Assembly (NCBI GenBank): GCA_963558075.1
Contig: CAUWFN010000001.1
Span: 7,000-70,999 of the forward strand
Reading direction: 5' to 3'
Length of the DNA stretch: 64,000 nucleotides
Source: an uncultured Clostridia bacterium
GTDB taxonomy: Bacteria; Bacillota; Clostridia; Peptostreptococcales; Anaerovoracaceae
Part shown: piece after piece, positions 51,609 through 53,681 of the stretch
How the letters are laid out: each line of letters begins with the position of its first letter
How positions within the stretch are numbered: position 1 is the first letter of the stretch
Program-made: the position numbers and the translations under genes
Notes under the pieces: model-generated
The model's input: only the letters and a program-made list of their open reading frames with translations
The model's database searches: none
What the model was told of the DNA's origin: nothing

Positions 51609-53681
51609 ATGACACAGAAATATGGCGTAAGCAGGGTTCTTGAACCCAAGCACGTGCTTCCGACATCTGCTTGGAGGCTGGACAATGCTAGAGGAATATT
51701 TCCTCACGAAATACGCGTATCCATAAAGAGAATACATATAGAGCGAACAAGTTTCAAGGAAATCTGCCTAGAGGCAAACAACAATGAGCAGAGAATAAGG
51801 CGGAAAATCATGGACATAGTAATAAGAAGAGGAAAACTTCATAATCCTGTAACTGATACTGGTGGGTTGTTTTATGGGGAAGTAGCCGAAATTGGGTCAG
51901 AATATAAAAACTACAAAGGCTTCAGACCGGGAGACCAGGTTATATGTAATGCATCCATGGCCTCGGTACCTGCGTATATAGATAAAGTTCTTTCTATAGA
52001 TATGGCTTATGGACAGGTTGATGTTGAAGGATATGCTGTTTTATACGACGAAGTGCCTTTGATAAGAAAACCGGAAAATCTTCCGATTAATCTTCTTCTT
52101 TTTACCTTTGATGAGTCGGGTACGCTATTTAGAATAAGTAGCAGCGCTGTAGGAAAGAGAAAGTTCCTTATAGTAGGAAACAATCTTTTGTCAAATCTGC
52201 TCTTTGGCTGTGCAATAAGAAAGGTTGCAAGTGAGGATGCAGAGGTTGTCTGCCTTCTAGATAAAAAGTCGGAGGAGGTAGTGTGCGGCGAGAGCATAGA
52301 TGAGCTGAAAGAGAAAGTATTTACGAGCGTTCATTACCTTGACATACTCAAGCCTCTCGAGTGCTTAGATGAGATACAGGGTGATTATCTATTTGATCTT
52401 TCTGTAAACTGCGCTGATATTCCGGGAGCTGAAACTATTAACATTCTTGCAACAAAGAGTGGCGGCACGGTTGTCTTTGCTAATCTTATAAATAACTACA
52501 ATATTTCATTATATATAACGGAAGCTATTTCAAGGCAGCTTGATATAAGATGTGCAGATGGATATCTTGAGGCTTACGATCAGTTCGACATTGAAATAGT
52601 AAAGGAAATGGCGCCTTACATAGAACGTGCAACAGAAGCGAAGACTGTAATAACAGAAGAAAACGTTTACTCTGCAGGTCTACAGGCAAAGCTCGCGGAA
52701 CTTTCTGGGAGCACGGCTTTGTTCGAAGATTTTATATGCGAAAGCCACGCGATGCTAAACGTTCTTAGCGAAATCATGACCGTATCAAAGTATGACTGCA
52801 ACGTTTTGATAACTGGGGAAACAGGTGTTGGAAAAGAAAAGGTGGCAAATTTGATTCACAAAAATAGCAACAGAAAGATGCAGCCATTTATCAAAGTCAA
52901 TTGTGCATCGGTTTCTCCAAGCCTAATTGAGTCTGAGTTTTTTGGATATGAGGATGGTTCGTTTACGGGAGCAAAGTCAGGAGGCAAGAAGGGGTATTTT
53001 GAGCTTGCCGATAACGGAGCACTGTTTCTCGATGAGATTGGGGAGCTTCAGCTGGATATGCAGGCAAAGCTTCTTCGCGTAATACAGGACGGCGAATTTT
53101 ATAGAGTTGGCGGCACAGTTCCTATCAAAACAAATGTAAGAATAATTTCTGCAACGAACAGGGAACTTGAAGAATCTATTACAGAAGGGGTTTTTAGACG
53201 TGACTTATACTACAGACTAAATGTAGTGCGTATCAAAGTCCCGCCTCTGCGAGAGAGAAACAGCGATATACCGGCTCTGGTAAAACACTTTCTGTGGAAA
53301 TACAGTAAAAAATTTGATGTTCAGAGAACCTGCGATGAAGATGCTGTTGAATATCTGCGTCAGTGCAGCTGGCCGGGAAATATAAGGGAATTAGAAAATG
53401 TGGTGCAGAGGCTTATTATTTCATCAAAGGGTTCAAGCATCACCCTTATAGATGTAATGAAAGAACTTCATTCGGAAGTCTTTGATGGAACGTCAATGCT
53501 AAATGATGATTCAGAACTGGAACAAACTGAGGAACTTAGCCTTGATGTCATGGTTTCTAACTTCGAAAGGAACATTATAAAGCACGCATGCGAAAAATAC
53601 GGCTCCACACGAAAGGCGGCTAAAGCCATTGGAATTAGCCAGACACAGCTTGTTAGAAAAAAGAAAAAATATGAGATATAG
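51609..53681 (+). CDS. Sigma54-dependent enhancer-binding protein with Kdd-like N-terminal sensor domain
   Basis: aa 1-350 align with the two Kdd proteins. AAA+ domain has GETGVGKE, GSFTGA (GAFTGA variant) and ELENVV. C-terminal Fis-type HTH is STRKAAKAIGISQTQLVRK. Confidence 0.85.
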   Translation: MTQKYGVSRVLEPKHVLPTSAWRLDNARGIFPHEIRVSIKRIHIERTSFKEICLEANNNEQRIRRKIMDIVIRRGKLHNPVTDTGGLFYGEVAEIGSEYKNYKGFRPGDQVICNASMASVPAYIDKVLSIDMAYGQVDVEGYAVLYDEVPLIRKPENLPINLLLFTFDESGTLFRISSSAVGKRKFLIVGNNLLSNLLFGCAIRKVASEDAEVVCLLDKKSEEVVCGESIDELKEKVFTSVHYLDILKPLECLDEIQGDYLFDLSVNCADIPGAETINILATKSGGTVVFANLINNYNISLYITEAISRQLDIRCADGYLEAYDQFDIEIVKEMAPYIERATEAKTVITEENVYSAGLQAKLAELSGSTALFEDFICESHAMLNVLSEIMTVSKYDCNVLITGETGVGKEKVANLIHKNSNRKMQPFIKVNCASVSPSLIESEFFGYEDGSFTGAKSGGKKGYFELADNGALFLDEIGELQLDMQAKLLRVIQDGEFYRVGGTVPIKTNVRIISATNRELEESITEGVFRRDLYYRLNVVRIKVPPLRERNSDIPALVKHFLWKYSKKFDVQRTCDEDAVEYLRQCSWPGNIRELENVVQRLIISSKGSSITLIDVMKELHSEVFDGTSMLNDDSELEQTEELSLDVMVSNFERNIIKHACEKYGSTRKAAKAIGISQTQLVRKKKKYEI

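Follow-up and report, generated by a model that had tools for sequence, protein, structure and literature searches.

What use could a transcriptional activator make of a domain that looks like an enzyme encoded next to it? The question is raised by a gene at positions 51609 to 53681 (+) of the 64,000-nucleotide (nt) stretch of genomic DNA analyzed here, hereafter the window, which comes from an uncultured member of the Clostridia (Anaerovoracaceae). Its 690-amino-acid (aa) product combines an N-terminal domain related to 3,5-diaminohexanoate dehydrogenase (Kdd) with a sigma-54-type AAA+ module and a helix-turn-helix (HTH), and the locus is a lysine-to-butyrate fermentation cluster with kal, two kdd genes, and kamA to kamE. 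On balance, we regard it as fairly probable that the protein is a pathway-specific, one-component sigma-54 activator of lysine fermentation, in which the N-terminal domain would serve as a Kdd-derived, noncatalytic metabolite sensor.

Residues 4 to 335 of the regulator are colinear, end to end, with both Kdd enzymes encoded downstream. In BLASTP comparisons using aa 1 to 374, the domain is 29% identical to Kdd1 (53873 to 54910, +) over 330 columns (E = 1e-43) and 28% identical to Kdd2 (55190 to 56221, +) over 331 columns (E = 2e-45). These alignments contain all of the peptide pairs quoted in an earlier, sequence-only reading of the window, which had claimed that the first ~350 aa align with both paralogs along their whole length. 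The solved 3,5-diaminohexanoate dehydrogenase (PDB 7DL0, 7DL1, 7DL3, and 7DL7) matches aa 4 to 333 of the regulator (E = 2e-26). An AlphaFold2 model of aa 1 to 365 (predicted local distance difference test score [pLDDT], 74.7; predicted template modeling score [pTM], 0.76) retrieved the same four structures as the top Foldseek matches (E = 1e-24 to 1e-22; template modeling score [TM], 0.64 to 0.74; ~350 columns), and other medium-chain dehydrogenases came next at a TM of ~0.5. Together with the model, these comparisons support the view that the N-terminal 340 aa (51609 to 52628, +) are a full-length Kdd homologue with the Kdd fold. The local copy of Pfam gave no match within the first 375 residues, and in precomputed annotation of homologues the newer Pfam model KDD_N (PF26370) covers this region. 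The NCBIfam equivalog model for Kdd (NF052381; cutoff, 200 bits) scored 269 bits on Kdd1 and 265 bits on Kdd2, which are 77% identical to each other. On the regulator it reached 134 bits at aa 6 to 172, below the cutoff, so the domain is a homologue of Kdd and not an equivalog.

The similarity is not explained by a copy made on the spot. The sequence-only reading had inferred that the domain came from a duplicated catabolic enzyme, and a sensor born by recent local duplication of kdd1 or kdd2 was rejected: identity to Kdd1 and Kdd2 (26 to 27%) does not exceed that to Kdd enzymes elsewhere (27 to 30%), and the regulators form one long separate branch in a neighbor-joining tree. The same reading called the domain degenerate, a label that misleads. 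Measured against the window protein across 78 loci, conservation is 68.9% in the N-terminal domain and 70.3% in the ATPase/HTH half. By this measure, and with invariant motifs of its own that are specific to the clade, the domain is not decaying.

The glycine-rich dinucleotide loop of the enzyme (IGGGGKSGLLCL) is replaced by VGNNLLSNLLFG at aa 189 to 200 (52173 to 52208, +), a replacement that the earlier reading had rightly picked out from the sequence and that a comparison of 79 orthologues with 26 Kdd enzymes bears out. The enzyme motif G190-x-x-G193-K194-S195-G196, in which G193, K194, and G196 are invariant across the 26 enzymes, reads G-N-N-L-L-S-N in all 79 orthologues. In every orthologue of the window clade, Leu and Asn stand for two of the three loop glycines and Leu stands for the lysine. 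By general Rossmann-fold rules, a Leu at 193 and an Asn at 196 should leave no room for the pyrophosphate, and we infer that NAD(P) binding and catalysis have been lost. Dozens of further positions are invariant within each group yet different between the groups; the enzyme-invariant N45/D47, GSGG motif, TLV, and GH-A are all switched in the regulators. Approximately 30 residues, many of them polar, are invariant in regulators and enzymes alike, including R9, E12, D25, E34, S48, R74, K76, N79, T82, Q136, E275, and E305, and the RGK-x-x-NP-x-T-x-x-GG motif is kept as well. Such shared residues would fit a preserved substrate pocket.

The remainder of the protein is conventional. Pfam identifies an AAA+ sigma-54 interaction domain with its lid at aa 376 to 623 (52734 to 53477, +), consisting of Sigma54_activat (PF00158; aa 376 to 542; 227 bits) and AAA_lid_14 (aa 548 to 623). 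Both the Walker A motif GETGVGKE (52815 to 52838, +) and the Walker B region LFLDEIGEL are present in the sequence. The sigma-54 contact loop is GSFTGA (aa 450 to 455; 52956 to 52973, +), a variant of GAFTGA that is also found in orthologues whose loci carry sigma-54 boxes. The standard module described in the sequence-only reading is thus present in full, and its assignment of a Fis-type HTH needs adjusting: the best C-terminal match is HTH_50 (aa 644 to 690; 53538 to 53678, +; 54 bits; cutoff, 27), and the Fis-type model HTH_8 falls just below its cutoff. The top NCBIfam match for the C-terminal 330 aa is PrdR, at 339 bits far below the cutoff of 795. At the level of sequence, the C-terminal two-thirds of the regulator has every feature of a bacterial enhancer-binding protein (EBP).

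The promoters expected of such a protein lie on both sides of its gene. A search of the window for TGGCAC-N5-TTGCW returned three perfect matches, two of which are intergenic and flank the regulator gene. One, TGGCACGCATTTTGCA (51523 to 51538, −), is the −24/−12 box upstream of kal, the divergently transcribed gene for 3-aminobutyryl-coenzyme A (CoA) ammonia-lyase (51044 to 51436, −; NF052388, 193 bits; cutoff, 160). The other, TGGCACGGCTCTTGCT (53789 to 53804, +), stands 69 nt before the ATG of kdd1. We refer to these promoters as Pkal and Pkdd1. The third match (40757 to 40772) lies inside a membrane-protein open reading frame (ORF; 40548 to 41060), far from any start, and was set aside as chance. 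Translation of kdd1 starts at the ATG at 53873, which has a good ribosome-binding site ahead of it; the TTG at 53849 with which the listed ORF opens is not its start. A terminator-like hairpin (53759 to 53782, +) follows the regulator gene and separates it from Pkdd1.

Palindromic sites accompany these promoters. The window has five copies of the pattern GAAC-N8-GTTC, where 0.75 would be expected, and every one of them is in the regulator locus: one near the kal −24 box, two between kdd1 and kdd2, and two inside the kdd genes. The first, GAACCGATATATGTTC (51569 to 51584; family consensus, GTGAACCnATATCGGTTCA), is a candidate enhancer or operator 30 nt from the −24 box of Pkal. The two between the kdd genes are GAACCATAATCGGTTC (54989 to 55004), which is also the core of a hairpin at 54978 to 55015, and GAACACAAATCGGTTC (55022 to 55037); both are of the enhancer type. 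The palindrome inside both kdd genes, GAACCAGCAGGAGTTC (53918 to 53933 and 55229 to 55244), encodes the conserved peptide EPAGV, and its presence may be a coincidence. Upstream of Pkdd1 we found a degenerate enhancer-like site, GACCCAAAAACGGCTC (53690 to 53705), ~85 nt from the −24 box, overlapped by a 12-bp palindrome, GTCAAATTTGAC (53681 to 53692). At the Rfam gathering threshold, no riboswitch or other known RNA was found in the leaders.

The spacer between kal and the regulator is crowded. A sigma-70-like promoter for the regulator, TTGCAA-17-TATCAT (51522 to 51550, +), overlaps the kal sigma-54 box on the other strand, and its TTGCAA is conserved among relatives. Just downstream of the same box is a sigma-70-like kal promoter, TTTACA-17-TATAAT (51515 to 51487, −), so that three promoter-like elements are packed within 51487 to 51550; the −35 element of the regulator promoter is the reverse complement of the kal −12 element. 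Since the palindrome at 51569 to 51584 lies just downstream of the predicted start from the regulator's own promoter, the regulator probably controls its own expression through this site.

The strongest evidence that the protein acts at these promoters is a covariation seen among its orthologues. A search with the N-terminal domain found ~90 protein clusters at 40 to 79% identity, followed by a drop to real Kdd enzymes at 26 to 29%. When one genome per species was scanned for the regulator-specific motifs HNP[VI]TDTGG and [VI]NCA[DE]I[PQ]GA, confirmed matches showed both N-domain motifs in at least 316 species. The loci of the best 80 of these 316 were examined; they belong mostly to Anaerovoracaceae/Family XIII and include Emergencia, Ihubacter, Eubacterium infirmum, E. 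nodatum, E. minutum, Aminicella lysinilytica, Aminipila, Hornefia, and Sinanaerobacter. In all orthologues the N-terminal domain and the AAA+ module share one reading frame. Among these 80, every locus with enough sequence has the order kal (divergent), regulator, one or two kdd genes, and kamA to kamE, except that the kdd-kam block sits behind kal instead in two of them. The tie to the lysine pathway proposed in the sequence-only reading is borne out by this constant company of kal, kdd, and kam (80/80 loci), by the boxes before kal and kdd1, and by the covariation described below.

Counting a sigma-54 box where at least 9 of the 11 specified bases agree, we found one in 46 of 79 kal-regulator spacers (those of 78 loci and of the window itself), most often with its start 70 nt from the regulator ATG, and in 46 of 73 regulator-kdd spacers (window included). 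The presence of boxes follows the contact loop of the protein: 53 orthologues have GAFTGA or GSFTGA together with at least one box, 25 have neither, 1 has the loop but no box, and the reverse case does not occur. The proteins without GAFTGA include L022, L023, L029, L031 to L036, L043, L048 (Eubacterium infirmum), L050 (Aminicella lysinilytica), L055 (E. nodatum), L074 (E. minutum), L077 (Hornefia), and others, with a lost-loop sequence such as FFGVEKDEENGI..KKGYFELAD. They fall into at least two separate groups in the neighbor-joining tree, which indicates more than a single inherited event. Their loci have no box of at least 9/11 in either spacer and keep GAAC/GTTC sites beside sigma-70-like promoters, as if dependence had shifted from sigma-54 to sigma-70 more than once. 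Across the 78 loci the palindrome is enriched 36-fold in the kal-regulator spacer, and further copies gather on either side of the first kdd gene. At Pkal, the distance from the GGTTC half-site to the −24 box is 29 to 30 nt in all but one of 44 distinct sequences, the exception having 31 nt.

The promoter of kdd2 is of another kind. In the window, the two palindromes are followed at ~46 nt by the strong sigma-70-like promoter TAGACA-17-TATAAT (55084 to 55112, +), and there is no sigma-54 box before kdd2. The two-kdd relatives (L001 to L044) show at the same place two well-conserved palindromes, an A/T-rich tract, and a conserved TAGACA-17-TATAAT, and no box of at least 9/11 precedes kdd2 in any of them (the best, 8/11, is in L044), even where the regulator keeps GAFTGA. 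Either the regulator would also act at a sigma-70 promoter, or these sites would serve Pkdd1, 1.2 kb away. Sites without a sigma-54 target before kdd2, together with the same sites in GAFTGA-less orthologues, make action at sigma-70 promoters possible. The kam genes (56335 to 62832, +; Pfam and NCBIfam) encode lysine 2,3-aminomutase (kamA), the reactivase (kamB and kamC), and lysine 5,6-aminomutase (kamD and kamE), and a CoA-transferase subunit gene is also found downstream with them.

The window protein is a member of a derived branch of a wider family of KDD_N and Sigma54_activat fusions. An exhaustive search of 1.84 billion representative proteins gave 693 relatives of the N-terminal domain. 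Approximately 20 of the best 150 are 680 to 717 aa long, and all 10 of the long relatives that were tested carry Sigma54_activat, most of them with the lid and HTH_50 as well. A profile search returned more than 110 clusters annotated with both PF26370 and PF00158, one of which has 1216 member sequences; among the organisms represented are Oscillospiraceae and Clostridium aminobutyricum, and Sinanaerobacter contributes a second copy. The window protein has the layout of this family (Kdd-like N-terminal domain, Sigma54_activat, AAA_lid_14, and HTH_50 within ~680 to 720 aa). A 535-aa protein of Cohnella kolymensis with KDD_N and Sigma54_activat (P0373) is named L-erythro-3,5-diaminohexanoate dehydrogenase in NCBI and UniRef, which is likely a regulator misannotated as an enzyme.

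An enzyme-like G..G[KR].G loop is kept in 65 of 125 aligned full-length family members, which mostly also keep the NIN, TGTGGM, AEG, and GHA motifs and reach 47% identity to Kdd2; the remaining members, the window clade included, are without this loop. In an unrooted neighbor-joining tree (no support values), a single split divides all fused N-terminal domains from the enzymes, with the enzyme-like fusions nearest the enzymes and the members without the glycine loop in one clade. This pattern fits one ancient fusion followed by remodeling. As to whether the architecture also stands beside unrelated operons, a point raised in the sequence-only reading, it does not among the orthologues (80/80) or in the enzyme-like branch (6/6) but does in a sister branch. 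All six enzyme-like members whose loci were examined (L081 to L084, L086, and L087) adjoin kdd and kce (BKACE), sometimes with kal. Most of their loci also hold an amino acid permease or a TRAP transporter, and none has aminomutase genes nearby. This arrangement suggests that certain Bacillota take up 3,5-diaminohexanoate, or a comparable beta-amino acid, produced by other organisms and break it down. One window-type family member adjoins a full kam cluster. In the sister branch without the glycine loop (L088 to L092), four of the five members examined adjoin class III aminotransferases and the fifth only an NhaC-type transporter; the neighbors vary, with NhaC-type transporters and, in L091, a set of CoA-transferase, thiolase, and HpaB/AbfD-like genes. 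These look like omega- or beta-amino-acid operons, and no kdd is near any of the five, two of whose contigs are short. All five sister-branch loci have a sigma-54 box, and four show a nearby palindrome (e.g., GAGTCGATATCGACTC). In most of these loci of the wider family, a good sigma-54 box separates the regulator from the operon that follows, accompanied by palindromes of the GA(A/G)(C/T)C...G(G/A)(T/C)TC type, and the enzyme-like loci carry GAACC/GGTTC-type sites.

In the mechanism that we propose, the N-terminal 340 residues would be an ancient Kdd paralogue turned noncatalytic sensor, which would keep the two-lobed dehydrogenase fold and many pocket-type residues after loss of the glycine-rich pyrophosphate loop. 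The C-terminal HTH would bind the GAAC-N8-GTTC palindromes in the kal-regulator spacer and around the kdd genes, and the AAA+ module would open sigma-54 promoter complexes at Pkal and Pkdd1 via its GSFTGA loop. The ligand may be 3,5-diaminohexanoate or a close neighbor, beta-lysine or 5-amino-3-oxohexanoate. Because the operons of the enzyme-like branch start at Kdd and import their substrate, 3,5-diaminohexanoate is common to all kdd-linked members and thus the best candidate. Its binding would either release or promote assembly of the ATPase ring. The kdd2-kamA-E operon, driven by its sigma-70-like promoter, would make the inducer, and the sigma-54 promoters would boost the steps at and after 3,5-diaminohexanoate (Kdd1 and Kal), a possible feed-forward logic.

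Several observations weigh against this proposal. The sites before Pkdd1 are degenerate in the window and in its closest relative, whereas other relatives have two good sites there, and kdd2-kamA-E has good palindromes without a sigma-54 box. At Pkal, the conserved site is only ~30 nt from the −24 box, and a survey of Clostridiales EBPs gives 100 to 250 bp as the usual distance between enhancer and promoter; the chief role of this site may be that of an operator acting on the regulator promoter. No rpoN gene lies within the 64-kb window. The location of the sister branch beside aminotransferase operons means that the domain alone does not specify 3,5-diaminohexanoate. According to a review of the structural work on Kdd, E310 of the crystal structure hydrogen-bonds the NADPH amide and G323 is the residue nearest to it; E305 and G318 of the regulator align with these residues in 7DL3 and are invariant among regulators, so that some nucleotide binding is possible. 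Finally, the AlphaFold2 model is weak (pLDDT, <50) at the most conserved motifs, YG..RVLEP..LP.SAW in aa 1 to 27 and RGKLHNPVTDTG at aa 73 to 84; these may be loops that become ordered only upon ligand binding.

Several other readings of the N-terminal domain deserve comparison with a Kdd-derived metabolite sensor. The first extends it across the family: the domain would be a true pseudoenzyme receptor that binds 3,5-diaminohexanoate without cofactor, and the family would preserve living intermediates of two transitions. One would lead from enzyme-like fusions beside kdd-kce to sensors without the glycine loop, some of them retargeted to aminotransferase operons; the other would lead from sigma-54 to sigma-70, with GAFTGA and the −24/−12 boxes lost together and the binding sites kept. 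In the window, a single protein might then serve two classes of promoter, the sigma-54 promoters of kal and kdd1 and, with two upstream sites, the sigma-70-like promoter of kdd2-kamA-E. Taken as a whole, this combined account is conceivable, if on the doubtful side.

The domain might also sense the enzyme and not the metabolite. A pseudo-Kdd domain could pair with true Kdd, as the subunits of dehydrogenases in this superfamily do, and the substrate-loaded or free state of Kdd would then control the activator, by analogy with the trigger enzyme DhaK/DhaL acting on DhaR. Window-type and enzyme-like regulators are always encoded beside a stand-alone kdd, the whole fold is retained, and the missing cofactor loop is consistent with a domain for which an active site has become superfluous. 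The sister branch, however, has the same kind of domain with no kdd nearby, and the many polar residues invariant in both enzymes and regulators are more like a kept pocket than a kept interface. We consider this explanation unlikely.

Still less can be said for the idea that NAD(P)(H), with or without substrate, is still bound by the domain, which would sense the NAD(P)H/NAD(P)+ state, or even that the domain is a working dehydrogenase fused to a regulator. The enzyme-type loop and motifs, retained in roughly one-half of the family members at identities to Kdd2 that reach 47%, agree with this idea, as do the E310 and G323 equivalents of the window protein. The window clade itself speaks otherwise, having lost two loop glycines and the lysine in every orthologue, switched all of N45/D47, GSGG, TLV, and GH-A, and fallen well below the cutoff of the NCBIfam Kdd model, and we judge cofactor sensing to be improbable here. 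It seems equally hard to believe that the domain is a structural or oligomerization module and that control is exerted through the amount of regulator or by other factors, for although the regulator promoter, overlapping the kal sigma-54 box and adjoining a putative binding site, could set the regulator's level, conservation over 79 orthologues is strong, motif specific, and on a par with the ATPase, ~30 polar invariant residues would not be retained in a domain that served only as a spacer, and one-component EBPs of Clostridiales typically carry ligand-binding N-terminal domains.

As a sigma-54 activator with a metabolite-sensing domain, the window protein would have familiar counterparts. 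XylR/DmpR (V4R), NorR and FhlA (GAF), PrpR (PrpR_N), TyrR (ACT-PAS), and PrdR of Clostridioides have the same layout of sensor, AAA+ module of the GAFTGA type, and C-terminal HTH, and as with these one-component EBPs the gene adjoins its predicted target operon, with −24/−12 promoters and palindromic candidate upstream sites. It differs from them in that its putative sensor has the complete fold of a medium-chain dehydrogenase and descends from a pathway enzyme and in that the putative Pkal enhancer is unusually near its promoter. From the enzyme itself (7DL0/7DL1/7DL3/7DL7; NF052381; KDD_N), with which it shares ~330 colinear residues and the fold, the regulator is set apart by an identity of only 26 to 29%, the missing glycine loop, and the fusion to an ATPase and an HTH.

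Regulators of the MocR/GabR type carry an aminotransferase-fold effector domain fused to a DNA-binding domain. There too, a catalytic fold has been reused as the effector-binding domain of a regulator that controls the catabolism of amino compounds; the parts differ, however, a pyridoxal phosphate-dependent aminotransferase and a winged helix working with sigma-70 in one case and a dehydrogenase fold and an AAA+ module working with sigma-54 in the other. GabR remains dependent on its cofactor, whereas in the window clade the cofactor loop seems to be gone. Enzyme folds are known to have been turned into effector domains in other cases, and MocR/GabR and the Fe-hydrogenase-like domain among the EBP domains listed below are two examples. 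TyrR and Rhodobacter capsulatus NtrC are activators of the EBP family that work without sigma-54. The 25 GAFTGA-less orthologues with their sites and sigma-70-like promoters resemble them, and the kdd2 region of the window is similar. The window protein differs in keeping GSFTGA and two perfect sigma-54 boxes and, judged by these features, is a regular sigma-54 activator at kal and kdd1.

The Clostridiales survey covers 490 EBPs from 57 species and lists PAS, GAF, HPr, PrpR_N, ACT, CBS, Fer4, Fe-hydrogenase, FeS, V4R, and receiver N-terminal domains. It contains no Kdd-like N-terminal domain, and none of its 39 regulon groups is a lysine group. A full-text literature search found nothing that links diaminohexanoate, kce, or kdd with sigma-54 or enhancer-binding proteins, and the literature searched contained neither a published characterization of the regulator nor an account of how lysine fermentation is regulated. 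Automatic annotation in databases already covers both halves of the protein, by way of the Pfam KDD_N model and a composite name at JGI. The sequence-only reading had stated that no characterized regulator was known to have this architecture, which agrees with the literature searched; as a one-off the architecture does not stand, since it belongs to a large family that the Pfam KDD_N model and some automatic annotations recognize.

Elsewhere in the window, the only Rfam match is a compact group II intron (32266 to 32939), with domains D1 to D4 at 32266 to 32461 (144 bits) and 32501 to 32576 and domain V/VI at 32868 to 32939; the only ORF inside it encodes 128 aa (32481 to 32867). Ahead of the lysine locus are a SCIFF six-cysteine peptide precursor (…GGCGECQTSCQSACKTSCGVANQEC…; 48715 to 48867) and, directly after it, the SCIFF radical-SAM maturase (48851 to 50248; TIGR03974, 767 bits).

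Lysine fermentation is a main route from protein to butyrate in gut and oral anaerobes such as Emergencia, Eubacterium infirmum, E. nodatum, E. minutum, Aminipila, and Hornefia. For sigma-54 biology, the protein adds a putative sensor class derived from a medium-chain dehydrogenase, in a family that spans enzyme-like to remodeled domains, and its orthologues amount to a natural experiment on the joint loss of the sigma-54 contact loop and the sigma-54 promoters. If the regulator does respond to 3,5-diaminohexanoate, it could be used as a ready-made biosensor part. Found in at least 316 species and wide among butyrate-producing gut and oral anaerobes, it gives this fermentation a concrete and testable control point.

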